From Yuukianura sp. NJ FZ-2021 (lineage: Eukaryota), in NCBI GenBank assembly GCA_046563655.1, contig CM102286.1:14136001-14200000 (forward strand): 64,000 nt of DNA, read 5' to 3'. The notes under the pieces were generated by a model that was not told the origin of the DNA, ran no database searches, and saw nothing but the letters and a program-made list of their open reading frames with translations. This document shows, piece after piece, positions 14,267 to 62,100 of this stretch (the first letter of the stretch is position 1; each line of letters starts with the position of its first letter). The translations under genes and the position numbers were made by a program.

Positions 14267-14509
14267 CAAGGTTTGTTGACTTTGACTTTCTTTAACAGAT
14301 TGGGTATTACCTCATGCTATTTCGATTTTGCAACTTTTCATTTCAGTGTATCGTAGTCATAACAATACAGCCAATTGTTTAAATTTTGCATATGAATTGG
14401 TACCAATTTTTGCGACTGGTAGACTTTTTTTTTCTCACTATCTTGTCAACAAGTGAGGTAGTACTCAACCTGTTAAGGAAAATTAACTTTGCTTTGGCAA
14501 GGGACCTTG
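14267..14509. mobile_element. P-like MITE
   Basis: caaggtttg...gaccttg with flanks ctagaaat / ctagcaat (7/8 TSD). Confidence 0.85.
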
Positions 14510-19642: not shown

Positions 19643-21136
19643 AATATTCACAACTGATTTTGAAGTTCACATTACTTTAATTTTCACATTAATTTCACAT
19701 TATGAGTCTCTGTTTTTTTTGTTCCAAATGTTTCTCAAATGGCAAAATTTTTGAAATGAAAATGGTAAAAAATTGATATATTTACTTTGAACTAGTAATT
19801 CTTTTCCTCTCAATGTCGTATAACCTGTGCAAATTTTTGAATTTGAACCCAAGCAATACAGAAACAATCAATTTTACTTTGTGGTTTAAAATTTTGGTAG
19901 AATAGATTACTCGTAAGTAAGCGTGTTTGTTAGTTATGAACAACAGCAATGTTTCTTAAATCTCTAAAAGTGATTCAGTTAAACGGTTCCAGAGAAAAAG
20001 AGCTTCTTCAGAATAAATCATCAATGTAAATTTCATCTTTCAAAATTCTGAGTTTCGCAAAACGAAACAAAATGTTTATGGTAGCAATTCCACCAGGGCA
20101 CAGAGGAAAATTTTCCCGAAATCTTAGACAACTTTTTTTTATTGTATTTTTTTGAAGAATCCTATTGATTACATCTAATTTTGAACTAGAAATGCGAAAA
20201 AAAATTCACCCCGCGTGATTTTTCTCCGAAAAACCGAAAAATCCGAAATTCGGATATTTCGGACTTCTAGCAAATTTTCTTCGTGTTTCTCAATGTTCGC
20301 CGATGAAAAAGTGCTAAGTTTCAATTTTCAGGTTAATATGATAACAGATGACGGAGTTAGCATGTCATTTTAACCGATTTTTCGGGGGCAACTTTGAGAC
20401 GGTCTCGCGGGTTATCCAGGAGCCGGAGCGATGAACGCAAGGTAGCGTTGGAAAGCTATCAGATTGAAGGATTATAAAAATCTCTCATGAATTTTACAGA
20501 GAAAATCCCATGTCAAAATAAACAGTTTCCGGGAGGTTAGGGAGGTACTTTGCCTGAATGCATGAACAATTTTTTATTAAAAATAAGCAAAAAAAATGCA
20601 TGCAAAAGCATGCAAATACTTCAAATTTTATGTGTAAGCAGATTGTGCGACAATAACAGGTACTTGGAACATGGGCTTAAAGCTCAGATGAAATCGGTTT
20701 TTTTGCCTCTTTGAGCCTCTTTGGATTTGCTTCAAAAATTTTGTTTAAAAAATGCCTAATGTCCACTCTAGTTACAAGAAAAAAACGCCAAATCGTCTTG
20801 ACAACTCTATGGTTTAATCCGGAATAAAGAATTGTAATTGTAAGGTTTTTACTACAATGGATGATTACTATTGTAGAATTTCATCATTCAAAATTCTGAG
20901 TTTTGCAAAACCATGGAAAAGGTAGGAAAAAAAGTGTTTAGTTGCAGCACTTCTTTGTGAAACAAGGTGTGTTTTTATGGACAATAAAATAAAAATGTTA
21001 CTGTAAAATTTTGCATTTTTAGTATCCAACTGCATTTAACAACTTGGGATTTTCAGTGTTCCGAAAATTTTGTTTCGCAAACATCATCTGTAGTGTCGAA
21101 AAGTTTTTCATAGTTTTGTAAAAAGTACGTTTTGCA

Positions 21137-23176
21137 ATGGTTAGTTCCAAATGTAATGGTAAGAGTGGCACTTTTGAAGAAATTTTGGAAGAAATTGGTA
21201 AGAAAATTACTTTCTAGGACTTACAGCGATTTTCAAAAACTTAGAAACTTTGATAAGAAATTGATTTTCTGTGTGTCTCTTTTCACAATTTTCAGGCGGA
21301 TTTGGAAAATTTCAGTTGTTGATGTTAGTGATTGTGCTTGGTTTGGAGCTTCCTGTGGCGTCTATTGGATTCATTACGGTATTCACTGGAGTATTTCCAG
21401 ACTACTGGTATTGCAATGGAGAAAAAATTCAAAAAACAAAAATTTGCGAATGCAACGGAACACTGTCAACTCCCTCTCCATTTAATTCTGTAGTTGAAGA
21501 GGTAATACACAAAGAACAAATTTTTAATTCAAATTTTGAAAAATGACATTTCGAAAAACAAATTTCAGTGGAACCTTGTATGCAGCTATGGATGGGTCTC
21601 AGATATGATAAACAGCGTTCAGATGATTGGAATGATTTTTGGCGCTCTCTGTTCTTCCCAGTTTGCTGATTGGTTGGAAAATTTTGCTTTTAAATTCCTT
21701 TTCAATTTTGAAAAGTTTGTTTAATTTTTTTTTTCAAATTTGGTGGGCATATAGGTATGGACGAAAGTATTCTACGCTCAGTTCTGCTTTGTTTCTAGGA
21801 CTCGGTTCTATATTTTCAGCAATTGCTCCGAATCCATACATTTATGCATTCGGAAGGGTTGTGTGCGGCGCAGGATTCTCTTCAGTTTTGAATCTTTCTG
21901 GAATTTATGCCATGGAGTTTTTACCAATCCGACGTCGATCGCTTTGCACATGCGCAGGACCGTACGGTTGGGCAGTCATGCTCCTAGCAATTGTTGCTTA
22001 CTATGTCAGACCATGGAGAACACTAGCTTGGATCACCACTTCACCTCTTCTCATATTCTGTCCACTTCTACTCATGTAGTTTCAAAATTTAAACAAAAAT
22101 TTGAAATTTTCATTTTTTTTGTATTTTTGAATTTATTTTTTTAGATTTGTACCAGAAAGCCCACGATTTTTGATTCGTCAAGGAAAGTTAGAAAAAGCAA
22201 CAAAAGTTTTGAATTTCATAGCGAAAATGAACGGTCGGCAAGAAATAGAGTTGTGCGTAGTTCAAAAAATTGCAGCTCAAGAACAAACCGGGGTCACAGC
22301 TTCATCTGAAGTTCGTGCTTCATATTTTGACCTCTTCCGCCAACGTGACCTCCGATCTAAAACTATTTGTCTCGCTTTCATATGGTTTTCATGGGGCCTA
22401 GTCTACTACGGACTCTACTTTAACATTAAAAACATTCCTGGGAACTTATATGTCGGCGCAATGTGCATGGGCCTGGCAGACGCCATTGGTTTCCCCTCGG
22501 CACTCCTCATAATGGACAGATTTGGACGGCGGAAGTCTGTCGTGGTTGCCATGACACTAAGTGCTGTTGTCATGGTTACGCTGGCTGGGATGCAGTTATT
22601 CCTGGATATTAACTCTATCCCAATAGTCGTCATGGTGACTTGTACTTTGGGCAAATTTTTCTTAGCAGTTGGTAGAAGTGCAGTGAAATGTTTTACTGGA
22701 GAGTCGTATCCAACTGACATCAGAAGCATAGGTAACTTTTTTAAAAAATTCCAAATTTTGAATTTTAAGAAATCGGAAATTTTAAATTTTGATTTTTAGG
22801 AATGGGAGTTTGCAGTGTTGCAATTGCATTAGGAGGAGCACTTTGTCCACAAGTCGTTTTCTGGGGCTCATGTAAGCTTGTAGTTTCTTTTTTTCGTAAA
22901 AATTACGTTTTGGTTTTCAAAAATTTTGACCAGTTTTTTGGAATTGTTGTTTTCTTTTTGACAGTCGAACCTTGTGTTCCGTTTCTGGCTTTTGCAGTTG
23001 TCGGATTAGGTGGCTCCTTCTTTTCGTTTTTCATTACAGAAACTTCTGGAAAGCCTCTGGAAGAATCCATTTCCAAAAAATTAGTCAGCGTGATAGCATC
23101 ATTAATAGTTCGAAGTTTTTACCGAGTTAAAACATCAACCAGCAACTTCAAATTAACAAGTAATTTTTTCAACTAA
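21137..23176 (+). CDS. SLC22/organic cation transporter-like MFS protein, copy 1
   Basis: GGFGKFQ, EWNLVC, D.YGRK, PESPRF, DRFGRR, ESYPTDIR, ETSGKPL motifs across GT-AG exons. Confidence 0.93.
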
Positions 23177-23583
23177 CATACATATAAACATGTTATGATT
23201 ACATCAGACAAATAAAATTTTTTAATGAAATTCAAAATTTTGTAGTGCTTTTTGATTTCTAATTTTTTAGCGTGATAACTACGTGCCTCTCGAAAGAAAT
23301 TCCTCGTGACGCAAAAGTCCGAAACGAAACTTGCTTATATGAATTAATTTTTTTTACATAAAAACTTTCCATGTCAAAGTTGAGTTTCAACTGGTTTTGA
23401 ATTTCCAAATGAATATTTTTTTGAAAAGATTAAGAAAAAAAAGTTTAAATGGAAATACAAGAGTTTATCAGTGGCATAACAAACATCCACTTAAGCGTCC
23501 TAAACGGAAATTGCTTTCTGTAATGATATTTTAAACGGAAATTTAGTCAACTCAATTCAGTCGTCTGCTTAACAACTTCCAGA

Positions 23584-26016
23584 ATGGTAAAAGATTTTGA
23601 AGACATTTTAGAAAAAACTGGTACGTCAAATTTTAAAAATGGGGAAAAAAAGATTCCAACAAACTTTAATCATTTTCCATAAAATTTTGTTGTTGTTTTT
23701 CTATTTTTAGGTGGCTTTGGGAAATTTCAGATTTTGGTATTAGTCATTGTTCTTGGTTTCGAAATTCCAGCGGCTTTTATTGGATTTATTCCAGTTTTTA
23801 CTGGAATACTTCCAGAGTACTGGATTTGTGATGGCGTCGAAATTCCAAAAACAGAAGCATGCAGTTGCAACGGTACTCTGACTGCACCTACCCCTTATAC
23901 ATCAGTTGTCGCAGAGGTAAATTTTTCAAAAAAGTTGAATACAAAAAAATTTTGACAAATTTTGACAAAATTTTTACAGTGGAACCTCGTCTGTGACTAT
24001 TCCTGGGTTTCTGATAGCTTCAACAGTGCTCAAATGATGGGGATGCTAATCGGTGTTATTTCGACTTCCCAAATTTGTGACTTGTTAGAAATATTTTTTA
24101 TTTTACTTTTCTTGAACTTTGAAAAAAAAATAGTTTTTCTTGAAATGTTAAGAAAAAGTTTAAGTGTTTAACATTAAATGTGCTGCATTTGGTGGGAATT
24201 TTTTTCAGGTATGGCAGAAAGTACACGACGTTTGGTACCGGAGTTGCTATTGGACTTGGTTCGATTCTTTCCGGCATTGCTCCGAATGCGTACGTTTAGG
24301 ATAATTTGCGGCGCAGCATTCTCCGCTCTATTAAATGTTTCCTGTATCTACTCCATGGAGTTTCTGACAGCCAATAGGAGAATGTGGTGCTCATGCGCAG
24401 GACCATACGGTTGGGCTACCATGGTCCTTGCGTTCATTGCTTACTTTGCTAGACCGTGGCGTACTTTGGTCTGGATCACAACATCACCTCTACTCATCTT
24501 TTGCCCACTTTTACTAATGTAACGCAAGCAAAAATTTTGAAAATTTCCAAAAATTGTACTTTTTTTTGCATTTTGTTTAATTTTAGGTTCATTCCAGAAA
24601 GTCCGAGATTTTTGATGCGGAAAGGCAGGCTGGAAGAGGCAACAGAAGCGATAAATTACATCGCAAGGTTCAACGGCTGTGAAGAAGTTGATGCCAAAGT
24701 GATACACCAAATCGCCGAAAAAGAGCAAGGGGAATCCAGCAACAGCGGAACAAGCTGCCTGGACTTGTTTCGACGAAGTGACTTGCTCAGGATAACACTT
24801 TGCTTTGGCACATTTTGGTTTTCATGGTCACTTGTATATTTTGGTCTTTACTTTAATATCAAAAACCTGCCTGGAGACATTTACGTCAGTGCAATGTGCT
24901 TGGGCGTGTCGGATGTTATCGGTATTCCCGCGGCAGCACTTATCATGGACAGGTTAGACTAATTCCTTCAACACCATTACGCAAACAACTCATTTGTAAA
25001 CAAAGTTTTCAAATACAGTCGAAACTCTCATTTCGCAACACGCTCTGATTGGTTGGTTTAGAAAAAATCAATGGTACCCTGAAGCTTTAAATTTGAACAC
25101 ATCTGAAATATTTTACTACAGAAAGTACCTTGTTTTGTGTTAAAATAAGTGCCTCACAGAGAATTCATAAGATTCTGTAAAATTCCTATGTTATGAGAGG
25201 CGGGGCTAAAAGTTGCACAATGAGAGGTTCGACTGTACTTTCAAAAAATGTTTAGTTTAGACTTGGTAGGTTTACCTGAATGGTTTTGACTTGTTTTGTA
25301 TTGATGGATTTCATGTTTATGTGATTCTGTGTTGATGTAATGATGTTTATGTATTAGGTGTGGCCGAAGACGATCAGTGGTGATGACGATGTCATTTGCC
25401 TCGACTGTTCTTGTTGTGCTAGCTGGACTCCAGCTAGCTTTGGATCTCCAGTCATTGCCAATTGTCATCTTGGTATTATGTACTGTTGCTAAATTCTTCT
25501 TGGCTATGGGTCGAAGTGCAGGAAAATGTTTTACAGCCGAATCGTATCCAACGGACATTCGTACTATTGGTGAGCACCGAAAAATTTGAATTATGAGAAA
25601 ACAATTTGGTAAAAAATTTTTCGAAAAAAACTCTAATTTCTTGTTTTGTTTTTATTCAAACAGGGTGTGGATTTTGTGGAATAACGTCAGGAATAGGAGG
25701 TGCCATTTGTCCACAAATTGTTTATGCTGGAACACGTTAGTTTACACTATTTTTTTTAAACATTCAAAATGTGTTCAAATTTTTCATAATTTCATTTTCA
25801 GTTCAACCTTCCGTGCCGTTTTTTGTTTTTGCTGGAATCGGAGTTGGTGGCTCCATCTTTTCTCTGTTTATCACTGAAACTTCAGGAAGGCCATTACAGG
25901 AATCAATTGCACGGAAACTGAGTCGACGCATAAGCATCATCAGCTCCAAGTTTTTACCAACGCTTAAGGAAAATCATAAGGAAAACTTGCACAGTATTGG
26001 TGAAAATCGGAGCTAG
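23584..26016 (+). pseudogene. SLC22-like transporter copy 2, frameshifted
   Basis: Full exon set, but an 11-nt deletion relative to copy 3 gives an in-frame TAG at 24297-24299. Confidence 0.75.
25016..25235. mobile_element. Tc1/mariner-pogo-type MITE, TA TSD
   Basis: ta|cagtcgaaactctcatt ... aatgagaggttcgactg|ta inverted termini. Confidence 0.88.
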
Positions 26017-26429
26017 TTTTACATTTCAAATCTACCAATGTTAGGATAGCATCAGACAAACAATTTACTGATTGAGTTTTGAAATTTTTTGTGCATCTTG
26101 ATTTCTAATGCTCTCGCATCACAGCTTCGTGTATCTCAATAAAAATTCCACGTGACTGCAAAGTTAAAAAACAAAAGTTACTGATTGAATTAATTTTTTA
26201 GCATAAATACTTTTCAGTGTCAAAATTGAGTTTTAACTGGTTTTGAATTTGAAGATGAACATTCTTTTAAAAAGATGAAGAAATAATGTTTAAATGGAGA
26301 TGCAAGAGTTTATCAGTGGCATAACTTTAAGATCCACTTAAACGTCGTCAACAGAAATTCCTTTCTTTAATAGTATTTTAAACGGAAATTTAGTCAACTC
26401 AATTCATTTGTCTACTAACATCTTTCAAA

Positions 26430-29400
26430 ATGGTGAAAGATTTTGAAGACATTTTAGAAAAAACTGGTATGTCAAATTTTAAAAATTTTGCAACAAGAGG
26501 AAGACGTCGAAGAAACTATTCTTTTTTTATATAAATTGTTTTTTTTTTTTCAAAATTTTTAGGCGGATTTGGGAAATTTCAGTTTTTGGTGTTAGTCATT
26601 GTTCTTGGTTTCGAAATTCCGGTAGCTTTTATTGGATTTATTCCAGTTTTTACTGGAATACTTCCAGAATACTGGATTTGCGATGGCATCGAAATTTCAA
26701 AAACGGAAGCATGCAGTTGCAACGGAACTCTCACCGCACCTACTCCATATACATCAGTAGTCGCAGAGGTAAATTTTTCAAAAAGACGTATACAAAAGAA
26801 ATTTTTTGAAAAATTTCAAAAAATTTTGAGAAATTTTTTACAGTGGAACCTCGTCTGTGAGTATTCTTGGGTCTCTGATGCCTTCAACAGTGCTCAAATG
26901 TTGGGAACTTTAATCGGTGTTTTGTCGACGTCTCAAGTTTCTGATTGGTTAGAAAGCTTTTATCAAAATTTTATTTTTCTCATTTTGAACCAAACAAATT
27001 TGGCTGAATTTTTTTTTTTTTTCAGGTATGGCAGAAAGTACACGACGTTTGGTTCCGGAGTGGCTATTGGACTTGGTTCGATTCTTTCCGTCATTGCACC
27101 GAATCCGTATATTTACGCTGTCGGACGCATAATTTGCGGCGCAGCAGTCTCCGCTCTATTGAATATTACCGGTATCTACTCTATGGAGTTTCTGACAGCG
27201 AAAAAGAGATTGTTGTGCGCATGTGCAGGACCGTTCGGTTGGGGTACAATGGTCCTTGCGTTCATTGCTTACTTTATCAGACCGTGGCGTACTTTGGTCT
27301 GGATCACAACATCACCTGTACTCATCTTTTGCCCACTTCTACTAATGTAACACAAGCAAAAATTTTGAAAATTTCCAAAAATTTTACTCTTTTTTTTTTT
27401 TGAATTTTTGTTTCATTTTAGGTTCATTCCAGAAAGTCCGAGATTTTTGATGCGGAAAGGCAGGCTGGAAGAGGCAACCGAAGCGATAAATTACATCGCA
27501 AGGTTCAACGGCTGTGAAGAAATTGACGCAGAAGTGATACGTCAAATAGTCGAAAAAGAGCAAGGACAATCCGGCGACAGTCGAAAAAGCTACCTGGACT
27601 TGTTTCGACGAAGTGACTTGCGCAGGAAAGCATTTTGTTTTGGTACACTTTGGTTTTCATGGTCACTTGTGTATTTTGGCCTTTACTTTAATGTCAAAAA
27701 CCTTCCTGGAGATATTTACGTCAGTGCGATATATTTGAGCGTGTCGGATGTTATTGGCTTTCCTGCGGCGTCACTCATCCTGGACAGGTTAGAATATTAT
27801 TTCAACACAGTTATGCAAACAATTCATTCGTATACAAAGCTTTCAAATACAGTCAAAACTCTCATTATGAAACACGCTCTGATTGGTTGGTTTGAAAAAA
27901 GTCACGGATACAGCGGGGACTCAAGTTTTAACACATATGAGCAGTGTTGCTGGATGGATAAAATATTTCTTCCACTCTCCTCGAAAGTGGTGGATATATC
28001 TGAATTTTATTGGTTTCTTCCGGACGAAATTCAATTTCGTCCATCGCAAACTGGATTTTATCCGGATTTATCCATTATCCAGTGGATATAATCCTAGACG
28101 AAATGCTAAAGAAGTGGAAATCCGGCAACACTGCATATGAGACAAGACAAAAAAAGTGACACCGGATAAGTTGGTATTTCAGTCAAAGTAACTTTTACTT
28201 GTACTTTGACTTTGGAAAATGAGGATATCCTCATTTTTGTCAAATCAAAGTGGTAAGTCAAAGTATAAGTTCGAGTGGAAGTTTGACTGAGAATTGAGTT
28301 TTTCACTCAAACTTGAGAACTTGCACTTTGTGTGTGGTTTCTTATGGTTGAAGTAAACTTTGACTCCACTGATGTGTTACCCACAAAATACATTGTACTA
28401 TTACATAATATTACATAATTAAAGTTAACTAATCATAAATTAGTTAAAGTTAATTAACTAATTGCAATTAATAATTAACTTTAATTAGTACGATTAACCT
28501 ATCAGATACCTACATTTACGGTGATTTCGGTTCGCTGACCACGAAAATCACTTCAAAAACGTTAAAAACCTAAACCTAATTAACTAATTACAATTAATAG
28601 TTAACTTTAATTAGTACAATTAGCACATGAGAAAAATGCATTTGGGGTAATTTTGGGTCGCCTACCACGAATATGACTTCAAAAATGCAGAGAAACGTAA
28701 ACATAATTAACTATTGCGATTAATAATTAACTTTAATTGATTAATTAAACTCAACTTCAACGTGAGTTTTGAACGAGGAGTCAGCTTACTTCAACCATTT
28801 TTTCGTTGAAGTCAAAGTAAAAGTAATGGGAAGTAACAACAGAACTTGTACTTGTACTTTGACTTTTGTCCGTCACAAAGTCAAAGTACAAGTAAAAGTT
28901 ACTTTGACTGAAATACCAACTTATCCAATGTATTAGAAATAATGTTATCAAGCAATTTCTAGAAAAGTTGGTAATTCCAAAAATCATAAACTGCGCAGTT
29001 TATGCGCAGTGCGCAGTTTGTACGCAGTGCGCAGTTTGTGCGCAGTGCGCAGGTTGTGCGCAGTTTGCGCGCAGTGCGCAGTTTGTGCGCAGTGCGCAGT
29101 TTGTGCGCAGTGCGCAGTTTGTGCGCAGTGCGCAGTTTGTGCGCAGTGCGCAGTTTGTGCGCAGTGCGCAGTTTGTGCGCAGTGCGCAGTTTGTGCGCAG
29201 TGCGCAGTTTGTGCGCAGTGCGCAGTTTGTGCGCAGTGCGCAGTTGGTGCGCAGTTTGTGCGCAGTGCGCAGTTTGTGCGCAGTGCGCAGTTTGTGCGCA
29301 GTTTGTGCGCAGTTTGTGCGCAGTTTGTGCGCAGTGCGCAGTGCGCAAAGTAAAAGTAATGGGAAGTAACAACAGAACTTGTACTTGTACTTTGACTTTT

Positions 29401-30396
29401 GTCAGTCACAAAGTCAAAGTACAAGTAAAAGTTACTTTGAAATACCAACTTATCCACCTTCCTGGTTTTGTATCATCATAAAAGACTCATCACAAAATTA
29501 GCGGTTTACGGTATTTATGTATTTTGCTTCTCCTCTCGAATTTTAGGAGAGGCGGAGCTAAGGGTTGCACAATGGGAGGTTCGGCTGTACTTTCAAAAAA
29601 TGTTTAGTTTAGACTTGTAGATTTAATTGAATAATTTTTTCTGGCTTTGTACTATTGATGAATTTCGTGTATATCTAATTTTGTGCTGATGTAATGATGT
29701 TTATGTATTAGGTTTGGCCGAAGACGGTCAGTGGTGATGACGATGTCACTTGGTTCGGCTGTCCTTGTTGTGCTAGCTGGACTCCAGCTAGCTCTGGATC
29801 TCCAATCACTGCCAATTGTCATTTTGGTGTTGTGTACTGTTGGTAAGTTCTTCTTGGCTATGGGTCGCAGTGCATCAAAATGTTTTACAGCCGAGTCGTA
29901 TCCAACGGACATCCGTACCATTGGTGAGCGTTGAAAAATTTGGATTATGTTTATGTAACAAATTGTTTCTGTTTTTTGGGAAAATATAATTTTTGGAAGA
30001 ATTCCAACTTTTCTTCTGATATTTATTCCAAAAGGATGTGGATTTTGTGGAGTAACTTCAGGAATTGGAGGTGCTATTTGTCCACAAGTTGTTTACGCAG
30101 GAACAAGTTCGTTTTACACAAAAATCTTATATTTTGTTTTGAAACATTGAAAAAGTATACAAAAAAAAATTTGTTTTCCAGTGCAACCTGCTGTGCCTTT
30201 TTTTGTTTTTGCTGGAATCGGTGTGAGTGGCTCCATCTTTTCTTTGTTTATCACCGAAACTTCAGGAAAGCCATTACAGGAATCAATTGCACGGAAACTG
30301 AGTCGACGCATAAGCATCATCAGCTCCAAGTTTTTACCAACGCTTAAGGAAAATCACAAGGAAAACGTGCACAGTATTGGCGAAAATCGGACCTAA
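26430..30396 (+). CDS. SLC22-like transporter copy 3
   Basis: Intact exon set, very similar to copy 2, with one intron (27788-29711) expanded to ~1.9 kb. Confidence 0.92.
27942..28133. mobile_element. hAT-like MITE
   Basis: TIR cagtgttgc(t/c)ggat and perfect 8-bp TSD catatgag (27934-27941, 28134-28141). Confidence 0.9.
28165..28926. mobile_element. MITE with ~50-bp TIRs (ggataagttggtatttcagtc...); right end repeated at ~29346-29456
   Basis: 28165-28214 is the reverse complement of ~28876-28926. Internal ~140-bp direct repeats at ~28430-28740. Confidence 0.85.
28985..29347. repeat. 18-bp minisatellite (gtgcgcagtttgtgcgca)n built from TGCGCA palindromes
   Basis: About 19-20 units, opened by the perfect 20-bp palindrome cataaactgcgcagtttatg. 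Confidence 0.97.
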
Positions 30397-31298
30397 AGTT
30401 TCCAATTGCGAATTTGCCATTCAGAATTTTCATTTCTAAGAATGAATAGTTAATTTTTTTCAGAATGCTTCTTAACATTCGTACAATCTTTGAATAAACA
30501 ATTTTAACACGTTCGAATAAATTAGGAATCTTCACATTACAACTTTTTCCGAACTTGGAATTTTGATTTTATTTTAATTCACGTATTTACTGTTCCACGC
30601 TTCGAACATTTTTGTCACACAGAAGCCCAATGACCTTCGATTTGACACTTTTTAAATTTGGAAAGGTTTGCGCCTAAATTGGAATCTTCTGGCACAAATT
30701 GCACTTGGAGTATTAAATGCACGAGATTTTTATGAAATTTTGTGACATATTTCTAAAAGTGTCAAAGGTCATGACTGTTCCTATGCTAATCTTAATGGTC
30801 AATTTAATCCTTGTGTATGCAAAACCAAAACCAAAACCGCATCTTAAAACTTGAACTTCAAATGACATCGTGAGCGAGAGGCTTTTGCTAAATATTTTGC
30901 AAGTATGTAAGATTTGGCATTACATACGTCTGTGGTAGTCATGTGTTTGAAGTTAATACAAATTTTGTAAAGACCAATCGAAAATTTCTTAGCTCCGAAT
31001 TAATTTTTCGCTGAAAAACGCTTTTTTTTGTGTCTTACCTTCTGACTTTAGCGTGTTGATTTTCGACAGAATTTGCTAAGAAATATGCTAAACACAAATT
31101 TTAAGTGGAAAGTGTGTGCATATGAATCAATCAGATCATGAAATTCAAGAATTTCTTCAGATTTTTTCTCCTGCTAAATCACTTACAACACCGAATCCAT
31201 CAGAAATTGTTTAGTTATTTGTTAAGTTAAAGAAATTTAGCAAAGTTTCAACAATAGCCTAACTTTTTCAACAAATACATCAAAATTTAAAAAAAAAA

Positions 31299-33554
31299 AT
31301 GACTAAATTTATAAAAGATTTTGAGGACATTTTAGAACATACTGGTAAGGAAATAATTTACAATTATTCCAGGATGAGGAATTCGTAACTTTAAGTTGTT
31401 TTACTATTGTTTTGATTTTGTTTTTTCATAATTTTCAGGTGGATTTGGAAAATTTCAGTTTCTTGTGTTGGTAATTGTGCTTGGCTTCGAAATTCCAGTG
31501 GCGTTTATTGGCTTCATTCCAGTTTTTACTGGAACACTTCCAGAATACTGGATTTGTGATGGAGAAGAAATAGGAAAAACGGAAGCTGCTAGTTGCAACG
31601 GAACACTGGCTGCACCTACTCCATTTACTTCAGTTGTAGCAGAGGTAAAATTTTTCGAAAAACTGAAATTCAAATTCCAAAAATATAATTTCTCAAAAAT
31701 TTTTAGTGGAACTTGGTTGGCGAATATGCTTGGGTCTCTGATTCCATCAACAGTGCTCAAATGATTGGCATGAACGTGGGAGTTCTACTTTGTTCCTGGC
31801 TTTCTGATTGGTTAGATTTTTTTAGAAGAAAAAAGTTCACAAAAGTTCGAATTTTTTGAAATTTAGTTTTACCGCGTTTTTTCATTAGGTATGGCAGAAA
31901 GTACTCGTGTTTTGGTTCCGGAGTGTTTCTGGCACTCGGTTCGATAATTTCTGCCACTGCGCCTAATCCATACGTTTATGGCATTGGACGCGTCATTTGT
32001 GGAGCAGCGTTTTCAGCTCTTTTGAATCTTACCGGCATTTATGCCTTGGAATTTCTGCCGGTAACGAAGAGATCGTTCAGCGCATGTGCAGGACCGTACG
32101 GTTGGGGCACTGTGATACTCGTACTGGTTGCATACTTTGTCAGACCATGGAGAACTTTAGCTTGGATCACAACAACACCTTTACTCATCTTCTGCCCACT
32201 TCTGCTAATGTAATTTCAAATAAAATTTTGAAATTTCTTTGAAATTTTGAAGAAAAAAAAACATTTTTCTTCTCTAGATTCGTTCCAGAGAGTCCGAGAT
32301 TTTTGATGCGGAAAGGACGAGTGGAAGAAGCAGCAGAAGCGATAAATTGCATCGCAAGGTTCAACGGACAGCAAGAAATCGATGTGGAAGTGATACGCAA
32401 AATAGCCGAAAGTGAACAAGGGAATACCAGCGAAAGTCGAGCTTCTTACTTGGACTTGTTTCGACGAAGTGACCTTCGCGGAAAAACACTTTGTTTGTGT
32501 TCAATTTGGTTTGCATGGGCGATGTTGTACTTTGGACTTTTCTTTAACGTCAAAAACCTCCCAGGAGATATTTACCTTGGTGCGTTGTGCTTGGGAGGGT
32601 CGGACGTTGTTGGTTTTCCTGCGGCTTTACTCATCATGGACAGGTTAGTTAATATTATGCAAGGTCCGTAAACAAGAAAATAGTTTTTTTTTCTTCAACA
32701 GGTTAAGCAATAACTCGAACTTTTTAATTTTTGTTGAAAAATTAGCAAAGCTTGGTTCACCATGCTTTTCTATTGCAATGATTTTTATGTAACTCCAATG
32801 GAATTGGAGGAAAACTGGGGAAAAAGGGGTTAGCAGCGAGATTTTTAAAAAACATACTTATTGCCCAACCTGTTAAAAACTATTACGTTGCTTTAGGAAC
32901 CTTGATATTATGTAATGATGTGTAATGTCATCTAATGTTGTGTTATGGTGTGTAATAGGTATGGTCGGAGAAGATCAGTGGTGATGACGATGTCACTTGG
33001 AGCTGTCGTCATGGCGACTCTGGCTGGGCTCCAGCTAGCTCTGGACCTCCGGACATTTCCAATCGTCATCCTGTTGTTATGTACTTTGGCCAAATTTTTC
33101 TTGGGTATGGCAAGGAGTGCTACCAAATGTTTCACAGCCGAGTCATTCCCAACTGATATTCGGACCATAGGTATACATAAGTATAAGCTGAGCGGGAATT
33201 TTCAAATTCTGACCATTTGGCCCTCTTTGTTCAACAGGAGCTGGATGTTGCAGTGTTCCAATCGGAATTGGAGCCGCAATTTCTTCACAAGTCGTTTTCC
33301 TAGGAAGCAGTAAGCTCATATTACAAAAAAAAGTTTTAGTATTTCAATAATTTTTAAATTTCTTGAATACAGTTGAACCTTCATCACCGTTTTTTGTTTT
33401 TGCCGCCGTTGGGATCACTGGCTCCATCTTTTCTCTGTTCATGACGGAAACTTCAGGAAAGCCATTACAGGAGTCAGTTGCCCGGAAACTGAGTCGGCGT
33501 ATCAGCATCATCAGCTCAATGTTTTTACCGTCAGTCAAGGAGATGCATACGTAG
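31299..33554 (+). CDS. SLC22-like transporter copy 4
   Basis: Intact exon set with the same motifs as copies 1-3. Confidence 0.92.
32660..32904. mobile_element. P-like MITE in an SLC22 copy 4 intron
   Basis: caagg...ccttg with perfect TSD atattatg. Confidence 0.92.
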
Positions 33555-34214
33555 TAACGATTCCGGATTTGAAAAATTGTAATTTAAAATTTCAAAATGC
33601 GGACTCCCTTCAGACACTCCGAATTCAATGTCCCTATTTCAAAAATTAATGTTTCGTCGTGAACGTGATTATGACTCAGAAATGTTCATGTGACTAGTAA
33701 ACAATAGCATTTTGATTTGTGCACTTATAAACACTAACTTTATTATATAGTAAGTAGTACTTTATGATTAAGTAAGCGTACAACATTGACACACTTTGTG
33801 TCGTCGTCATAGGCGTAAAACGACGAAGGTCAATTACTCTATAAACGTGAAAAGAATCAATTTAGCAGATCAAATACACAAAAAGTACCAAACACATTTT
33901 TAGTAAGTTTGCACAAAGCCATGGGAAAGAGCATGAGCAAAGATTCGGAGCAGTTGGATACGGGAGATAAGAAAAAGAGCCACTTGAGTTCTGGGAAGTT
34001 GTTAAATTTTGCATAAATTTCGCAACTTTAGATCTCACATGTTCATTTTCAATTTCGCAACTAACTAATCTACTACGTAAGACCAGCTGCTAAAAACGTG
34101 TGCTACTTGTGTAACAAAGAAAACTTTTACTTTTTTTAGGTGTTTAGCAGCCAAGCTGAATTTTTTTTTGATTTTTGAATTTTAGCGCCTTCAACTCCTG
34201 CAACGAGAACGACC

Positions 34215-40130: not shown

Positions 40131-40408
40131 GGTGCACTGAATTGTTCAATAGAAACTGAACTTACGAATCGTAAGTTCACTTTCTCGTAATCGTAAGTTA
40201 CAATGCTCAAGGACGCATGATCAATCATCACCAATTTCAAACTTTTATTACCTTATTGTCACAAAATTATCTCCAATTCTCCACTTAACTAGCCGACAGC
40301 CGACAAATAAAGTTTCACCTTCAAATACCGAAATTCCTGAACATTCATCATTGTTTTAAAGTTTAAAACAATGATAACAATGATGAACAATGGTAACAAT
40401 GATGGTGC

Positions 40409-40580
40409 GTCATCGCGTTTTCCGTCATGGCATAGGGAACTCAATTGGTCATCGCGTTTTCCGTCATGTCCAGAATAAAGGCCGGTCCGTCATCACGTTT
40501 TCCGTCATGTCCATAAGAAAGGCCGGTCCGTCATCGCGTTTTCCGTCATGGCATAGGGAACACCATTGAAAAATGGTGCT
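40409..40580. repeat. ~40-bp tandem repeat with core gtcatc(g/a)cgttttccgtcatg, 4 copies; related copies at ~44870-44960
   Basis: Direct inspection. Confidence 0.85.
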
Positions 40581-44543: not shown

Positions 44544-44809
44544 CAAGGTTTATTGACTTTGACTTTCTTTAAGAGGTTGGGTAATACCTCATGTTTTTTT
44601 TTGATTTTGCAAAAAAAAAGTGTCTTTTGCTTTCAGGGAGTCGTAGTCATAACAATACAGCCGAATTTTTTAAATTTTGCATACAATTGGTTTCATTTTC
44701 TGGATTGGTAGTAATATTGGTACCATTTGTTTTTTCGTTTTTGTGTCAACAAGCGAGGTAGTACCCAACCTGTTAAAGAGAATTAACTTTTCGTTGTCAA
44801 GGAACCTTG
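44544..44809. mobile_element. P-like MITE
   Basis: caaggttt...gaaccttg, flanks atcatgtc / atcctgtt. Same subfamily as 14267 and 18240. Confidence 0.88.
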
Positions 44810-45079
44810 ATCCTGTTATTCCACGTTTATTAAGAAACTTTTGCTACTTTATAATTTTGATTTATAAAAGTCATCACGTTTTCCGTCATATCCCCATAAG
44901 AAACGCCGGTCCGTCATCGTGTTTTCCGTCATAACATAGGGAATACCATTGAAAAATGGTGAAAAACATCCGCACAATTATCCCGGAAACTACTGAACCG
45001 ATTTCGCCCCGGTTTTTACCAATCAACAGCTCATGAGCGTGACAGCTTGGTTCTGAGTGTAAGGGTACATGCTGGAGCC

Positions 45080-45651: not shown

Positions 45652-46790
45652 ATGCAGTTTGCAGTTACGCTTGGCCTGTTGGTCGTCGTATTGCCATGGA
45701 GTGACGCAATGAAGGATTGCAAAAAACCCAACCCGGTTCCTTTCGTAGACGATTATGTAAGAAATTTAAATGTTGTCTTCTTTTCCACATCATTTCATTA
45801 TCAGTACTCTTAAACGCTTAAATTCGTTTTAAGTTCTAAATTCCCATTCACACTAAACCTAAACAAAAGTGTAACTTGATATGGCAATTGTCAATGTCAT
45901 ATAAACTAACTGATTGATTGGTTAAAAGCGTAAAAAGAAAATTAACAAAAATTCAGATTTCTAATATTTCTAATGTTTTTGTAGTTTTGTGGTGGGCAAA
46001 AGACATTGACCTTTGCGTTACACTCTGACTGCACCAACTGTGAAGAAGGTGATGTAAAATGGAGACCATTTCAAGGTCGATCAGTTCCAACGACGGTGTG
46101 CTACAAGATGCATGGTGAAATGTACGGGAAGCCATTTTCTGCTAACTTCGAATGTAATTACTCCGTGTCCGGACGAGGAGGCTGTGTACTCCTTCCAGGA
46201 AACTCAGCCCAGACACCATGTAAGAGATCAGTATTTCCAAGGTTCCTTGACAACAAGTTGCATTTCCTACAACAGGTTGTCCATTACCTCGTGGGTTTCA
46301 AAAATCTTGCTTCAACCAATTTTCTTTCAATTCCAATTGCTTTTACCTGCAAATAATTATCGCAGAAAAAAAAAGTTGCTCAAATTTTTTAACAAAATGA
46401 AAAATATAAAGGTATTGGACAACCTGGTGTAGAATAGACAACTTTTGTTTACGAACCTTGAGTATTTCTGTGATTATTATTATATGGTAAGTGGTTTTAG
46501 GTAAACGTCACGAAAATCTTAAAACAAACATTTTGTGCATATTTGCAGTTGCTGGTGACCATGTTGTGACGAAGACGGATAATAAGACGTACCTGGCTGG
46601 AGTCACTTGCGTTTTTGGGTATGACGAATTTTTCTGGGTTGTAACGAACGAGGACAGGTCAGCTGACGAGAAGTTCAAGAAGAAAATGTTGAAACACTTC
46701 AAAAGCATTGGATTCGAAACTACGAAATTGGTCGACAAAGATGGACCACTCGTTTTTAAAACCATGGACTACCAGAAAGACAAGTGCTAA
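45652..46790 (+). CDS. Secreted lipocalin-like protein (3 exons)
   Basis: Signal peptide MQFAVTLGLLVVVLPWSDA. Exons 45652-45756, 45985-46219, 46549-46790 join in frame. TDNKTY...TC (SCR2-like), FWVV and a terminal Cys. Confidence 0.7.
46238..46460. mobile_element. P-like MITE in the lipocalin intron; partial related end at ~47020-47075
   Basis: caaggttc...gaaccttg with perfect TSD agtatttc. Confidence 0.92.
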
Positions 46791-47440
46791 ATTCAACAGG
46801 CTCATCCGGATCATTCGATCTCCAACGGAAACAACTTAAACCTTCAAGTAGACTGTAGTTTCAAAAAAATTAAAATAAAAAAAAAATGCAATTCCATTAA
46901 GCAGTGCTCAAGGGTGAAGCACATGTCTACTAGTTTAACCGCAAGTTTTGTCCAACCACCGAACATTTTTTTATACCCGCCTGACCAGTTCAATTGTTTG
47001 AAGCAAAATTTTTGGAAACTCCGAGGTAGTGGACAACCTTTTGTAGGAAATACAATTTTTTGTCAAGGAACCTTGGATTATGCCGTCATTTAAAATAATT
47101 TTACTTCAGTAGATACTCGAGTCCATGATCACTCACTGGCTGATTTTCAATTCAGCACACCTACTGCAGATTGCACTAATTGCTGAAACTATAATGATTT
47201 TTCAAGTTTCGTTAAAAAATGCACTTCACTAACATCACCTCTTTCAAAAAATAGTATTTAGCCGGAAAATGTTAGTTTTCAAACTTACTATTCATCGTAC
47301 GTCAGCAGCAGCTTTTGAACTGAACGTTGTTCTTCAAATAGGGCTCTTTGAGAAATCCAAAGTTAATTTATTAATTTTTAGTAAAGGCGAATTAGTAGGA
47401 TGACTTGAAAAGATGGATAAATTTTGAAAAAAAAAAGTTT

Positions 47441-52404: not shown

Positions 52405-53179
52405 TTTGATTTTGAACTTTCCCTCACTTTTACTACATGTTAAGAGTTGGAGTTGAAGTTAGAGTGTGCGTCTGATCAGTGATGAGTGTGAAGGCATACC
52501 GATGATCATTATATTGATTGAACTGATCAAGGTCTCGTCATGTCAGGAAGCTTTTTATAAACGACTCAAAAAATGTCATGAAGAAAATTAACGTTTCTTT
52601 AGACCGTTTTTATGGGTGCGAGTATGCATGCATTCACATGCAAATGGATATTGTTTAGGTTTACAATTTATAATTATATATAATATATTTTATAGTATAT
52701 ATAATTACAAAATAAGTTTAGGTTTTAGGTTTAAATATGTTTATGTTTACTTAAATATCGTCGACTGCAGATCGCAGCTCTCGCAATTCGTCTAATAATT
52801 TGCCGAATTTCAACACAATTTTACATGCTGTAAGTTCAGTAGTACCGCGTTGACTCTGGTTCACCTCAGTGACCATCCGTTTGAGAACGTCCCACTTTGA
52901 TTTGTCCAACGCCTTCATTGCAAGCTGGCGCCTGCCGTCGTCTTCAGTTAGCTGAAAATTAAGATTTTAGGTGAATTTCACAATGCTTATGAAAACAATT
53001 TTAAATACTATTAACTCAAAATTTATAGGCGCTAAATCCGAGTTTAGTTCCGGATTAGGATTTTCCGAAATTCGGATTTGAAGGATTTTTAGTTCCATTT
53101 GAGGCTATGAACAATTGGAATTAGAACTCACCACTCTGTTCATTGAAGCTAGAATTTGATTGTTGTTCAAAACCACAAA

Positions 53180-53291
53180 ATTCGTTGTTATGACTATGAT
53201 GTACCGAGATGAAAAGATACTTTTCGCTCAAAATAAAAAAAACATGAGGTATTGCTCAACCTGTTAAAGAAAATCACGTCTACAAACCTTG
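53180..53291 (-). mobile_element. Truncated P-like MITE (one end only)
   Basis: catgaggtattgctcaacctgttaaagaaaa...aaaccttg matches the family end. Confidence 0.75.
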
Positions 53292-56923: not shown

Positions 56924-59136
56924 ATGACACTGCACTGGACTGTCTTGTTCTTACCGTTCCTCGTTCAGTCAATATCCGCCCAATTACGACAAGAACAATT
57001 GGACGATCTTCCTCGGGCAATCAGTAAGTTTTTTAAATAAAAATAGTTCTAAACAAAAAATATAATAATAATAAAATAGAATAATACAATAGTATATAAT
57101 ATTTAGTAGTAATATATAATAATTTAATGTATAATATAATACATATAATACTAATAAAAAAATAACTTTTAATGAATTAACTTACAGGTCTTCTGAGCGA
57201 CTACCAACTGACGTTTGTTCAGCAAGAAAAAGCTACACAACTTCGACTCAACAAAGAAAGGATCAACGGGCCTTCTGGAAATTTCACACCGATAAAGTCT
57301 CCCGTCCAAGTTTTACAGGGCTTGCAAACTGAGCATCTCCATAACCACAGTGTTTCGGCCATCGAATGGGCCATGACCTACTCCGGTCAAGATGTAATCG
57401 GCGCACTACTCATCTTCTTTACACTTTGTCCCATCTTTTTCGGCCACTTTGTACGGAGATATGTGTACCGATTACTCAAACCCACCATCTCCGTCAAGCA
57501 CAAAAGCAACTTTCCAGTCATTCCGCTCAAGTATCTCCAGGAAACGAAAGATGAGCAACGTGTTTTCCTTCCTTCCAGAAACACTTTGCGTTGGGCCGCC
57601 ATGCGGTACATCATCATGGCGTCCGATAACGTCGTGAACCTCAAGATGCTGCATTACGGTAAAGGTAGTGAGGAAATGGATCAAGTCAAGTACAGAAAAC
57701 ACCGTGCATGGTTCATCCTTAGAATTATGGCCAAGGTTTGTTGACTTTGGTTTTCTTTAACAGGTTGAGTAATACCTCATGTTTTATTTTTATTTTTGCA
57801 GTTCAATGCTATTTACACCCGAAAGCAAATGGAAAAAGAAGGTGAAGAAGCTGGACTGGACAAGCTGAAGCAATTGGCCAAAATCAGACGATTGCAGGCG
57901 CGCCAAGAAGAAATTCAAAAAATTGCTGAACAGGAAGCTGAGCGAATTCGACGAGCGGAACTTGGCGAAAGTGATGAAGATGATAACAAGAAACGACCAT
58001 TGTACAAACTCGGAATTGACAAAACTGGACTGCGCAAGTATGCTTACGACCTTCGTCACCCTGACGACCGGGCGTCAATTGTCGTTGACGGGGAGAGAGT
58101 TATGAAGCCCGAAGCGGTCAAAAGACGAACTTCATTGGAGATTGTGTACGAAGGGCTGCGGAGAGGCATGGCCAACCCCAGTTCTAGATTGAGTTTGGAG
58201 CGTCTGCGCCAATTTTCGGACGAAAGTATTATCCACGGACCGGCAGAACCCGAACCGGAACAGAAACCGGAAGTGGAAGAACCTCCGCAACTTTCGGAAA
58301 AAGCTGCCATGAAAGCAGCAGCGATGCAACAAAAACATATTTTGAGACATGTAGAGCAGGCAAATCGGTCGAGGCTGTTTAGCCAGGCGCCCGCTCCTGC
58401 CCGCCGGCCATCTCTCCGTACGATGTCACTAATTGAACTTGAAAAGCCCAAGACCAGTGTCCAGGAAACATCAAAAGAAGCGGCGCCAGAACCCGGAAAA
58501 GACGCTGGACAAAGAGATCATGTGACGAGAAAACATGGCCACCATCATCGTCATTCGCATGGTCATCATCACACTGAGCATGCCCAAGGTCCGAAACATG
58601 CAGCAGCACCCATAAACCCGCCCCATCAGAAAAATCGTCGTGATACGGAAGAGTCACGGCCTCCGAGAAAATCTGGTGCCGGGGGAGCTACGCATGCTCG
58701 TCATCATCATCGTCACCATGCTGCCCATCACGGTCGTCACGAACGCCGTGCAACTCTTGATCCAGCGACAGAACAAGCTAAACCTCGTGCTGCTACTGGC
58801 AAACACAATCTACATCACGATCCACAAGAACATCACACTGATGCTCCTCCTCCAGCACATCACACTGATGCTCCTCCTCCAGCACATCACACGGATGCTA
58901 CTCCTCGACCAGCACATCACACTCATGCTCCTCGAAAGGAACATCACACTGATACTTCTCCTCGACCAGCACATCACACTGATGCTCCTCCTCCAGCACA
59001 TCAGACTAATGCTCCTCCTCCAGCACATCACACCGATGCTCCTCCAGCACATCACGACCAGCAGCAACATTTGGAAGTACCAGCACGACACGGTCACCAC
59101 AAAGCAAGGTCACCCCAAGGATCGCCAAAAAAATGA
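56924..59136 (+). CDS. Orphan signal-peptide plus single-TM protein with His/Pro-rich repeat tail (3 exons)
   Basis: Exons 56924-57023, 57188-57735, 57802-59136 join in frame. TM VIGALLIFFTLCPIFFG and HHTDAPPPA repeats. Confidence 0.8.
57732..57801 (+). mobile_element. Left-end fragment of the P-like MITE family spanning the predicted intron 57736-57801
   Basis: caaggtttgttgactttggttttctttaacaggttgagtaatacctcatg...ttttgca aligns with the first ~70 nt of the 14267 and 44544 copies. Confidence 0.85.
58830..59056 (+). repeat. Coding minisatellite, 27-30 bp units (cacactgatgctcctcctccagcacat)
   Basis: About 8 tandem units encoding HHTDAPPPA variants. Confidence 0.93.
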
Positions 59137-62100
59137 AAGCCGTGACCAAGGTCAGCGTCAAGCATGCGCAAAACTCTACCGATTTTTTTGTTGCGTTGAG
59201 ACTTTGCGTTCCTTCTTCACAAAACTACGACTTTAATTGAACAAAAATGTAAAAATCGACAAAACTAAAGTTAAAAAAATGTGTTGTAAAAAAACGATTT
59301 GGTTGAAAAGTATGTTTGCTGATCTTCAGTTTTTTGCGAGTTTTTTGTAGAATTTTAAGTTTTAATTTTTGGATAGTTTTTTCCATGCATGATGTCAGGT
59401 TTCGTCTGTCGCCAAGCTGTCTTGCACTTCTTCTTGACTCGTCCACTTGACAGACGAAGTCTAACGACCTTGTTTGTGACTCTTGTGAGTCTTAGTCACT
59501 CTGACGACCATCCTGGACATAAGTTTGAAGAGGACACAGAAGATAGTCAAGACAAAGACCAAAGTGTCCAAGTTTCAATTAAGGATTTCCTTCTGAATTC
59601 ACTTTTTATTAGGAAATAGCACTTGTGCGTCGTCTTCTTGTCTTATCACACGGAATGTCCTCAATTCTTTAACTTTTCGCTATCATTCCCCTCTGCTTTT
59701 CCTTAAGTGCTCACAAACAATCAAACACAAAGTCAAAGTTAGTCTAAAACTCATAATACGTCTTTACTTATACTCACTTTCATACTCATACTCGCATACT
59801 CATCTACAAAAAATCAATGAAACTCTTTTAGATTTTAGTTTTAGAAGCTCGGCTGGAGTTGAGATGAGAAAATTTGCAAAAAGCTTCATTCAATCTTCTA
59901 ATCTAAAAAGTTTTTGCCAAAATCAATATTTGCTAAAAAACACGTCTTAAGCCTGGCTCACACCAACTCTCCGTTCTACCTAGTGTTAAACTTTTTACTT
60001 TTTTTGAACTTCTCTTTGTTTGAATTGTTTGTTCAAATTTGGAATTGTTTGGCGCTTAAGACAAGATTAAAATTGGACCACCTTATTTTCTATTTGCGGA
60101 GATGATGAATGCATAGTCTACTTTTTTAATGTTGAATCATGAATCTACCTTGGTTGCCATTTTGATCGTCTCCTTGAAATGTTTTTCCACAAGTGTTTTT
60201 GTGGTTTAACAAAAGTAAAACTGGTGCATAACTTTATTAGAAAGTTAATAAGGAGGTAAACGAATGTTAAGTTAGGGAAATCCTGCCCCTAACTTCCCCT
60301 TGTGCTTATTCTTGTACTAAAAGTACAGCATGTACTAAAAGTACGAGAATTACACTTGCTTTGAAGCTACCAGAGCAAGAAATGGTGCAGAATTTTGAGA
60401 GTCTAGAAATACTAAAATTAGGAGAGAAAACATCTGGTGGTGGTGTTAGTCATTTTTATTATTGAGAAAAAGAATAATTAAATCTACATTAAACGAAGAT
60501 GAAATTCTGAACGATGGAGATTTGACTAAGGTGATATGATGGAAAAGTGGAAGAAATTTTTTGATCCAAATTTTAACTTTTTTTAATACCTTTTTTGTAA
60601 AAATATTAATGTAAATCTGACATATTTTGACTATATCTTCCCCATGCAATCAAGTTAAACTTTGTGTAAATTGAACACAGGAAATTGAATTTACTAATAA
60701 AAATTTTAGCTGGCGTCGTGATTTGATGATCGACTTTCTTCCATAGCTTATCTACTAAAATTTTATTTTGGATTTGCGAAAATTTCTTACTAAAGTTTCT
60801 TACGAAACACTAAAAAAATTGCGAAGTTTATTTTTGGGGAATGAAGGTTTGAGGTTGGCGGTTAAGAATGTGAACGAATGAAGATTTTAGTCAAGTGTTT
60901 CGTGCTAAAAATGTGCCTATATGATTCCAAAATTTTGCACTTGGTGTTCAAACGAGTTCCAAAATTTTGAACTGTTTCGTAATTTTTGTGAGAATAAAAG
61001 TGAGCAAGACTCAAAATAGAAAAAATGTGTTTTAGACGCTTCTTCTTTGGAAACTCAATCCTCTGCTAGTCTTCTCCCATTTCCATTTATAACAGCTTAT
61101 GTTTTTTGTTAAGTTCAAAACAGCTTCATCTCTAGAGCGGCGACCCTCAGAATTTTTTTATTATAAAATTTTTCAAATTGTTTAATTTTTTTTTTGCGTC
61201 GGGAGATGCTGTAATGTCTTGGAGTCCTTCAGTTTGTTGGAGTTTATACAGGTGTTTTATGGTACTAGGAACCTTGTATTGTAGTTTCTAAATGGATCTA
61301 AAGTTAGCTAACCACAATCTAAAGTGGAATGATGAGGATATGACTGGAGATGAGGTTCGTAATGTTAGGTTCGGTTGGTGGAGGAGGCTGTCTTTGTCAC
61401 AAGGAGACACGAAGAGGCCCCTCCACTTAAACTAAAGGCGGCCGACTGGAGGTGTGGAAAAAGAAAAGTGGCGAGTCCACATCAACCTTGTCACAAAGGA
61501 GGAACTCAATTCAAAAAATCTACGCAATTTTTTTCCAAAACGATTTCGAAATTTTGCAAAATTTCAAGTTATTCTACTTGACATTGCTAGAAAAGACACA
61601 ACAGGGGCACAAGAGCAAAGAGTCGGAAGGATCTGGTGAAAGCAGAGAAAGTTCGACTAAAATTCTCCAAAAAGTAAGTTTTGCTTCTTTATTTTTTAAT
61701 TTCATGGCAAATTAAGTTAGGCTAACCACTTTAGGATAAAGTTAGGCTAACAGAGTTAACATAACGTTAGTTAAATTATGAAGCGTAACTATGTTAGTTG
61801 GATGTGGTTTGAATTAGGTTATGTTTCGGGTGCTCAGCTCAAGGTGAGGTTATTGAATTGGGTTGCGAATCAATTGAAATATGAATGTATGGTGGACGTA
61901 TGACCTTATCAGGGTAATGCATTTGCCTGGACGAGTCACGTTAGTCGCATACCTCATGACAAGTGCATGAGTAAACCTAAAAGTTCTGTTTGGATTGTAT
62001 CATCATCATTTTCAAAATGATTGCTCAAAATTTGGCGCCGGACTGTCTGACTTTTTTAAAAAAAAAAGACTCTCCCTACAAAAAAAAAACTTGTCAGTTC

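Follow-up and report, generated by a model that had tools for sequence, protein, structure and literature searches.

How does a coding region come by an intron that reads, almost to its last base, as the end of a transposable element? This question is raised by a gene of Yuukianura sp. NJ FZ-2021, in a stretch of contig CM102286.1 (assembly GCA_046563655.1, positions 14,136,001 to 14,200,000, forward strand). We analysed this stretch of 64,000 nt as a whole and call it the window; coordinates below are window positions unless another contig is named. The gene spans 56924–59136 on the plus strand, and its second intron, 66 nt long, is homologous to the left end of a miniature inverted-repeat transposable element (MITE) family with further copies in the window. 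An earlier interpretation made from the letters alone (the sequence-only reading) had taken this intron for an introner-like gain. Our results confirm what that reading observed and support its interpretation in part: the intron is probably a single lineage-specific, transposon-derived gain, and an introner-like family is not supported by the window.

Borders and reading frame of the intron

The gene is modelled with three exons and two introns, and its spliced form gives 660 codons with one terminal stop:

56924–57023, plus strand: exon 1, a frame-2 open reading frame (ORF) with the start codon and a signal-peptide-like N-terminus, ending in phase 1 and aligning with exon 1 of a homologous gene on contig L001 (..LPRAI here, ..LPRPI there)
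57024–57187, plus strand: intron 1, 164 nt, GTAAGT..ACAG, phase 1, at a position common to the 77-nt L001 intron (2632–2708 of that contig)
57188–57735, plus strand: exon 2, coding for the ectodomain, a predicted membrane helix and the conserved block on the cytoplasmic side, ending ..RIMAK (translation P0001, compared with the L001 protein P0003)
57736–57801, plus strand: intron 2, 66 nt, phase 0, GTTTGT..TTTTGCAG, homologous over its whole length to the MITE left end
57802–59136, plus strand: exon 3, starting FNAIYTR and running through conserved blocks and a His-rich repetitive tail to the stop codon (translation P0002, compared with P0003)

Around intron 2, the exonic CAAG occupies 57732–57735, the GT 57736–57737 and the AG 57800–57801, and exon 3 follows from 57802. 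With a slash marking each splice junction, the donor and acceptor contexts read AAG/GTTTGT and TTTTATTTTTATTTTTGCAG/T, so that GT stands at the 5′ end and AG at the 3′ end. Two motifs of the form YTNAY, which we take to be the branch-site consensus, lie at 57757–57761 and 57776–57780. Pyrimidines make up 80% of the 20 nt preceding the AG, against 38–68% in the homologous stretch of four MITE copies. A higher pyrimidine content in the intron tail is expected from selection for a good acceptor, and it could be chance. If the intron were retained, translation would continue as AKVC and meet an in-frame TGA at 57742–57744, the stop that the sequence-only reading had pointed out.

The closest homologue, P0003, is encoded on L001, an 8,520-nt metagenome contig of genomic DNA. 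Exon 2 aligns with P0003 at 63% identity over 174 residues (E 1e-80), ending at P0003 residue 174, and the alignment of exon 3 begins at residue 175 (E 1e-31). In a global alignment with this homologue, the K/F junction is flanked in both directions by more than 60 residues free of gaps. A second homologue, P0004, spans the same point as ..RVLAK FNGIY.., again with a gapless junction. Because P0003 (at residues 174/175) and P0004 both align gaplessly across the junction, homology supports the intron and its exact borders as real, and the joining of ..IMAK to FNAIY.. proposed earlier holds to the base. Judged by its GT and AG ends, its pyrimidine tract and the frame that its removal restores, 57736–57801 has the features of a U2-type GT-AG spliceosomal intron.

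The intron matches the left end of a MITE

With CAAG plus the intron (57732–57801) as the blastn query, the 64-kb window gave the following matches:

44544–44608: 89.2% over 65 nt, E 4.8e-17
18501–18445: 91.2% over 57 nt, E 2.5e-15
53291–53230: 89.2% over 65 nt, E 2.5e-15
14267–14329: 84.6% over 65 nt, E 1.3e-13

The sequence-only reading had aligned the whole intron with the MITE left ends at 14267, 44544, 18501 and 53291, and the identities of 84.6–91.2% over 57–65 nt bear this out. In pairwise alignments, the match extends from the element's first base through TTTTGCA, just short of the closing G of the intron, leaving at most the last one or two intron bases without an element match. The coincidence of the element terminus CAAG/GT with the intron donor, also part of that reading, is confirmed. 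The 14-mer at this exon/intron border, CAAGGTTTGTTGAC, occurs eight times in the window with up to two mismatches. Shuffled sequences contain it 1.12 times on average, and none of 100 shuffles reaches eight.

The intron is no more remote from the family than the copies are from one another. Over the first ~70 nt, the intron and the copies are 83–87% identical, and the copies among themselves 78–86%. Compared with a leave-one-out majority, 9 of 66 columns differ in the intron; for the copies, the figure ranges from 4 of 61 to 11 of 67. Seven of the nine differences fall in the last 16 nt of the intron, and its 50-nt body differs at two positions.

Queries with full-length elements match the gene at 57732–57796 and, inverted, at a 28–29-nt stretch (57751–57779). 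In inverted orientation, the right subterminal repeat of the element matches the core of the intron too (89–93% over 28–29 nt), which shows that the intron sequence came from the element and was not captured by it. The same queries found no further element part within 57000–59200 at E ≤ 0.01, in agreement with the earlier statement that nothing else of the element remains. The portion present is thus the first ~62–66 nt of a 243–266-bp element, and neither the right end nor a second target copy was found.

The source family looks like a hAT-type MITE

Besides the intron, the window holds these copies and one related element:

14267–14509, plus strand: full-length MITE copy, 243 bp, with flanking 8-mers CTAGAAAT and CTAGCAAT matching at 7 of 8 positions
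18240–18501, minus strand: full-length MITE copy, 262 bp, with flanking 8-mers matching at 7 of 8 positions
44544–44809, plus strand: full-length MITE copy, 266 bp, with flanking 8-mers ATCATGTC and ATCCTGTT matching at 6 of 8 positions
53159–53291, minus strand: truncated MITE copy, only the left ~110–145 nt of the element, with AT-rich flanks and no reading frame
32660–32904, plus strand: related MITE, 245 bp (CAAGGTCCG..GGAACCTTG), with a perfect 8-bp duplication, ATATTATG

Family members measure 243–266 bp, begin with CAAGG and end with CCTTG, and carry terminal inverted repeats (TIRs). Being short, non-coding and multi-copy, the family has the features of MITEs. Its count in the window is five: three full copies, one truncated copy and the intron fragment. 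Apart from the fragment, one copy lies in an ordinary intron and one upstream of a minus-strand ORF, and the flanks of the other two were not resolved. The copy at 18240–18501 appears to lie within an intron of a plus-strand gene, a short way downstream of a donor-like GTGAGT (~18222). The related MITE at 32660–32904 is inside an ordinary intron (32644–32958) of a sugar-transporter paralogue.

Duplications of 8 bp flank all three full copies, with 6–7 of 8 positions matching, as well as the related element, with 8 of 8. An 8-bp target-site duplication (TSD) and a YARNG terminus are given as hallmarks of hAT elements (PMC3014272). Because the 8-bp duplications and the CAAGG terminus fit this pattern, the source element looks like a hAT-type MITE.

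A Pfam scan of ORFs in the window found no transposase domain, including in the ORFs of an 838-bp element at 46236–47077. This element has 86-nt inverted ends (87% complementary), which open with CAAGGTTCCTTGAC, a sequence close to the MITE terminus. None of its ORFs is matched in Pfam, and its flanking 8-mers agree at 3 of 8 positions only. It could be a non-autonomous relative of larger size.

Meanwhile, we notice that three of the four copies carry a strong acceptor-like TTTCATTTCAG or TTTGCTTTCAG some 80–93 nt into the element (14335–14350; 18408–18424, minus strand; 44633–44648). A left end with CAAG/GT and such a site would amount to a ready-made mini-intron of ~85 nt. The end of the intron at 57736 falls ~20 nt before the corresponding position.

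Homologues favour gain over replacement

The L001 gene allows the site to be read in the genomic DNA of a relative. Exactly at the position of window intron 1, it has a GT..AG phase-1 intron. At the K/F site, it is uninterrupted (..TTAGCACAG TTCAACGCC.., that is, ..GCACAG/TTCAAC..). The sequence-only reading had named an orthologous intron at the same position and phase as the observation that would speak against gain, and the L001 DNA has none there. Because L001 keeps the upstream phase-1 intron yet is uninterrupted at K/F, gain is favoured over replacement of an older intron. We consider it likely that the intron was gained from MITE sequence, by whichever route.

The five homologues with sequence across the junction column all read through it uninterrupted; L001 alone was read as DNA and counts fully. 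Their residues at this column are Q, K, A, R and K, with Lys in P0004 and P0008 and Gln in L001, the closest. No convincing copy of the element terminus was found in L001, where the single match, with three mismatches, is at chance level.

Origin of the exonic CAAG

The four bases before the donor belong to the exon and at the same time equal the start of the element:

57732–57735, plus strand: CAAG, which ends exon 2 and is identical to the element's first four bases; it may stem from the element or from the ancestral exon

Deleting 57732–57797 in place of 57736–57801 is also in frame and gives Ala-Gln, as in L001. Read in this way, the CAAG of the element would now encode Lys, as the sequence-only reading had it, with an ancestral CAG turned acceptor (a change of Gln to Lys). 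On the other hand, because P0004 and P0008 have Lys here, the AAG codon may be ancestral, in which case the four shared bases would be coincidence or microhomology.

Proposed route and its alternatives

The route that we propose is the integration of a MITE into the exon, followed by its truncation to minimal intron size, and we give it about an even chance of being correct. In the first step, a family member would have integrated into the coding exon at an 8-bp target ending at 57731, creating the junction ..GGC/CAAGG..:

57724–57731, plus strand: putative integration target, ATTATGGC, the 8 bp directly before the CAAGG terminus, with T at position 2

In the second step, splicing would have used the terminus CAAG/GT as donor and, as acceptor, an AG at or beside the original exon sequence. 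A deletion or an abortive gap repair would then have removed everything past about element position 65, including the second copy of the target site. The outcome would be an intron of the usual minimal size in this genome, with the T-rich stretch of the element serving as polypyrimidine tract.

Several observations agree with this route. The homology begins exactly at the terminal base of the element, as it does at a junction made by transposase. The second copy that consists of a left end only (53159–53291) fits integration followed by truncation. The T at target position 2 also occurs in four flanking duplications elsewhere in the window. A length of 66 nt appears to be the local norm for introns, because the intron at 32644–32958 would measure 62 nt without its MITE and duplication. 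The pyrimidine-rich tail described above, if it reflects selection for an acceptor, would also suit this route.

Other observations weigh against integration and truncation, or against a gain as such. The route is read from a single junction, since the second 8-bp target copy and the right end of the element were not found. The shared T at target position 2 is weak support, T being 0.33 of the window. In the T-rich tail, MAFFT and pairwise alignment disagree, which makes the exact last homologous base uncertain. The splice junction 57735/57802 itself is supported by a single kind of evidence, protein homology. L001 is one distant relative (63% identity in exon 2), so that a loss in its lineage is conceivable and its orthology is not proven, and the other four contiguous homologues may come from DNA, RNA or spliced gene models.

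An alternative is a one-step gain that involved no integration: after a double-strand break, the exon would have been repaired with filler copied from a MITE, or with a piece captured from an excised one. In that case, CAAG would be the shared microhomology on the left and GCA that on the right, and the Lys codon would be ancestral. Lys at the junction column in two of the five homologues (P0004 and P0008) is in keeping with an AAG that predates the intron. The element is incomplete, and a second target-site copy was not found, which also speaks for this alternative; intron gain by break repair has been described for Daphnia, Drosophila and others (PMC3443670). However, a start exactly at the terminal base of the element should be rare for templated copying, although capture of an excised free end would give it. 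Moreover, the intron boundaries share only AG, a direct repeat of 5–12 nt of the Daphnia type was looked for and not found, and the closest homologue has Gln at the column. We regard this one-step gain as rather unlikely, with a small but real share of the probability.

Replacement would mean that a MITE landed in an older intron whose original sequence was then deleted entirely, and that the L001 lineage lost the intron. MITEs of this group do insert in introns (18240–18501 and 32660–32904), intron presence varies even between paralogues in the window, and the one homologue seen as DNA is distant. Against this, the new donor must fall exactly on the element terminus with exon end, phase and residue count unchanged, and the element accounts for every base of the intron except possibly the last one or two. 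All five homologues covering the site are contiguous as well. We think replacement very unlikely.

An equally slim chance is left for the view that 57736–57801 is not an intron at all, and that a 66-nt MITE fragment disrupts the gene. The gene would then be a recent null allele or encode a truncated product of 216 residues ending AKVC, as the in-frame TGA would allow. Yet GT and AG bound the fragment, its tail is 80% pyrimidine, and its removal restores the gapless match with the homologues. The 444 downstream codons stay open with their conserved blocks kept. The divergence from the family equals that of the other copies, so the fragment need not be very young. Finally, a chance resemblance of a T-rich intron to a repeat, for which nothing speaks except the low-complexity tail, is rejected with near certainty by E values of 1e-13 to 5e-17 within the window, by a 50-nt non-low-complexity body with only two differences from the family majority, and by the 14-mer count that no shuffle reached.

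The host protein

From its predicted sequence, the product of the gene appears to consist of a signal peptide followed by a short ectodomain, a single hydrophobic helix, the conserved cytoplasmic block and a repetitive tail rich in His. Neither exon 2 (P0001) nor exon 3 (P0002) has a match in Pfam. The protein family is very sparsely sampled: among 1.84 billion representative proteins, only six members were found including the query, which leaves five relatives. Word-based protein searches recovered P0003 and P0004 only. The source records of the relatives held no informative names, and an Atlas search of the host protein gave no usable match.

Despite the lack of a Pfam match, the family (56924–59136 here, 2547–4246 on L001) has a strongly conserved block, ..FP.IPLKYLQETK.EQRVF..RYIIMASDNVVNLKMLHYG.. 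In exon 3, eight copies of a 27–30-nt repeat (58794–59072) encode a His-/Pro-rich nonapeptide (..PPAHHTDAP..). The C-terminus of the L001 homologue is also His-rich, but its sequence differs from the exon 3 tail.

Window context

The window is AT-rich (29–45% G+C) and its introns are short. Pfam matches in the window comprise P450, four tandem sugar transporters, IMPDH, MsrA, COX20 and a short-chain dehydrogenase. The P450 exon is similar to eukaryotic clusters that are commonest in Chordata or Arthropoda. Taken together, this gene content is in keeping with an animal. No Rfam family and no tRNA was found in the window.

The four tandem sugar-transporter paralogues (PF00083) occupy 21100–33650. 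At the codons for MDR followed by (F/Y)GRR, paralogue 1 (22131–22799) is uninterrupted and paralogue 4 carries a 315-nt phase-2 intron (32644–32958); intron presence therefore differs between recent paralogues. Of the 315 nt in the paralogue 4 intron, 253 are the related MITE and its 8-bp duplication. Within a long gap of the third paralogue, 56-nt inverted arms (96% complementary, 661 nt apart) are followed by an 18-bp tandem array of ~19 units (28159–29367), which together may be another inserted element.

Two other repeats were observed. A tandem satellite with a period of 131 bp fills positions 1–2004 and reaches the left edge of the window, with at least 14 copies at 62–98% identity to a reference copy. 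A further repeat family, ..GGTCCGTCATCGCGTTTTCCGTCAT.., is present at 40390–40578 and 44894–44961 with 93% identity between its two copies, one of which starts ~85 nt after the MITE at 44544–44809.

Comparison with known systems

The closest functional parallel appears to be the splicing of maize Ds. In work of Wessler and colleagues in the late 1980s, Ds/Ac insertions, which belong to hAT, were reportedly spliced from exons through donors in the element terminus. As in our case, a member of the hAT superfamily would supply the 5′ splice site from its terminus, and an exonic insertion would be removed from the mRNA. In contrast, the maize cases are said to be mutant alleles with whole elements and imprecise, partial splicing, whereas the intron studied here is minimal, in frame, one-ended and apparently fixed.

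The introner-like character claimed by the sequence-only reading is not supported, as only one of the five copies in the window forms a coding-region intron, and this is a 66-nt fragment of a 243–266-bp element. Introners are described as short, non-autonomous DNA transposons with TIRs and TSDs that become introns on insertion, supplying one splice site and co-opting the other (PMC11282704; PMC9860276). They are known from Micromonas, Aureococcus, fungi and dinoflagellates. One survey reports them in 175 of 3,325 eukaryotic genomes; in animals and land plants together, it came upon them in only two groups, both of animals (PMC9860276). The intron of Yuukianura sp. shares with them that a short DNA transposon with TIRs and TSDs forms a GT..AG intron in a coding region and provides one of the splice sites. 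It also shares the absence of the intron at the site in a relative, here L001, which is single and distant. Introners, however, are whole elements at many sites, and we have, in this window, a single intron made of one 66-nt fragment of a ~250-bp element. Also unlike introners, neither the right end nor a co-opted target-site copy was found here, and the remaining window copies are insertions of the usual kind.

Transposon insertion is a classical route of intron gain, and a 2012 review counts 35 such events in Oryza, Drosophila, Oikopleura and Zea (PMC3443670). The Daphnia gains of 2009, as cited in that review, likewise are short new introns of foreign sequence at sites uninterrupted in relatives. 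According to the same account, they often have short direct repeats and are mostly of unknown source, whereas the present intron has an identifiable transposon end and a boundary repeat of AG only. The introns of the tunicate Fritillaria borealis, as presented in PMC11282704, share a MITE origin in an animal. They are described as mostly non-GT/AG and in need of an altered spliceosome, in contrast to the canonical GT..AG found here.

Abortive gap repair and microhomology-mediated joining are described as the makers of deletion derivatives of DNA transposons (PMC3814204). These processes could plausibly yield a remnant with the left end only, and a microhomology of 1–3 nt is possible at its right junction (A, CA or GCA, according to which codons were ancestral). 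Known derivatives keep both ends and are mobile, whereas the remnant here is one-ended and immobile.

Meaning for intron origin

Could the MITE family be an active generator of introns in an animal genome, so that many short introns are decayed element ends? We hold this to be doubtful and give it only a small chance. If it were true, the symmetrical inverted repeat would offer a CAAG/GT donor in either orientation, and insertions beside CAG or AAG would be spliced at once and would later shrink to minimal introns. As a single instance, the intron adds one more example and no new principle; it would become important only if many such introns exist genome-wide. In animals, an intron whose source can still be read in the sequence is rare. 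This case would show the end of a hAT element supplying both the donor and the pyrimidine tract of an intron, and ending at minimal intron size.

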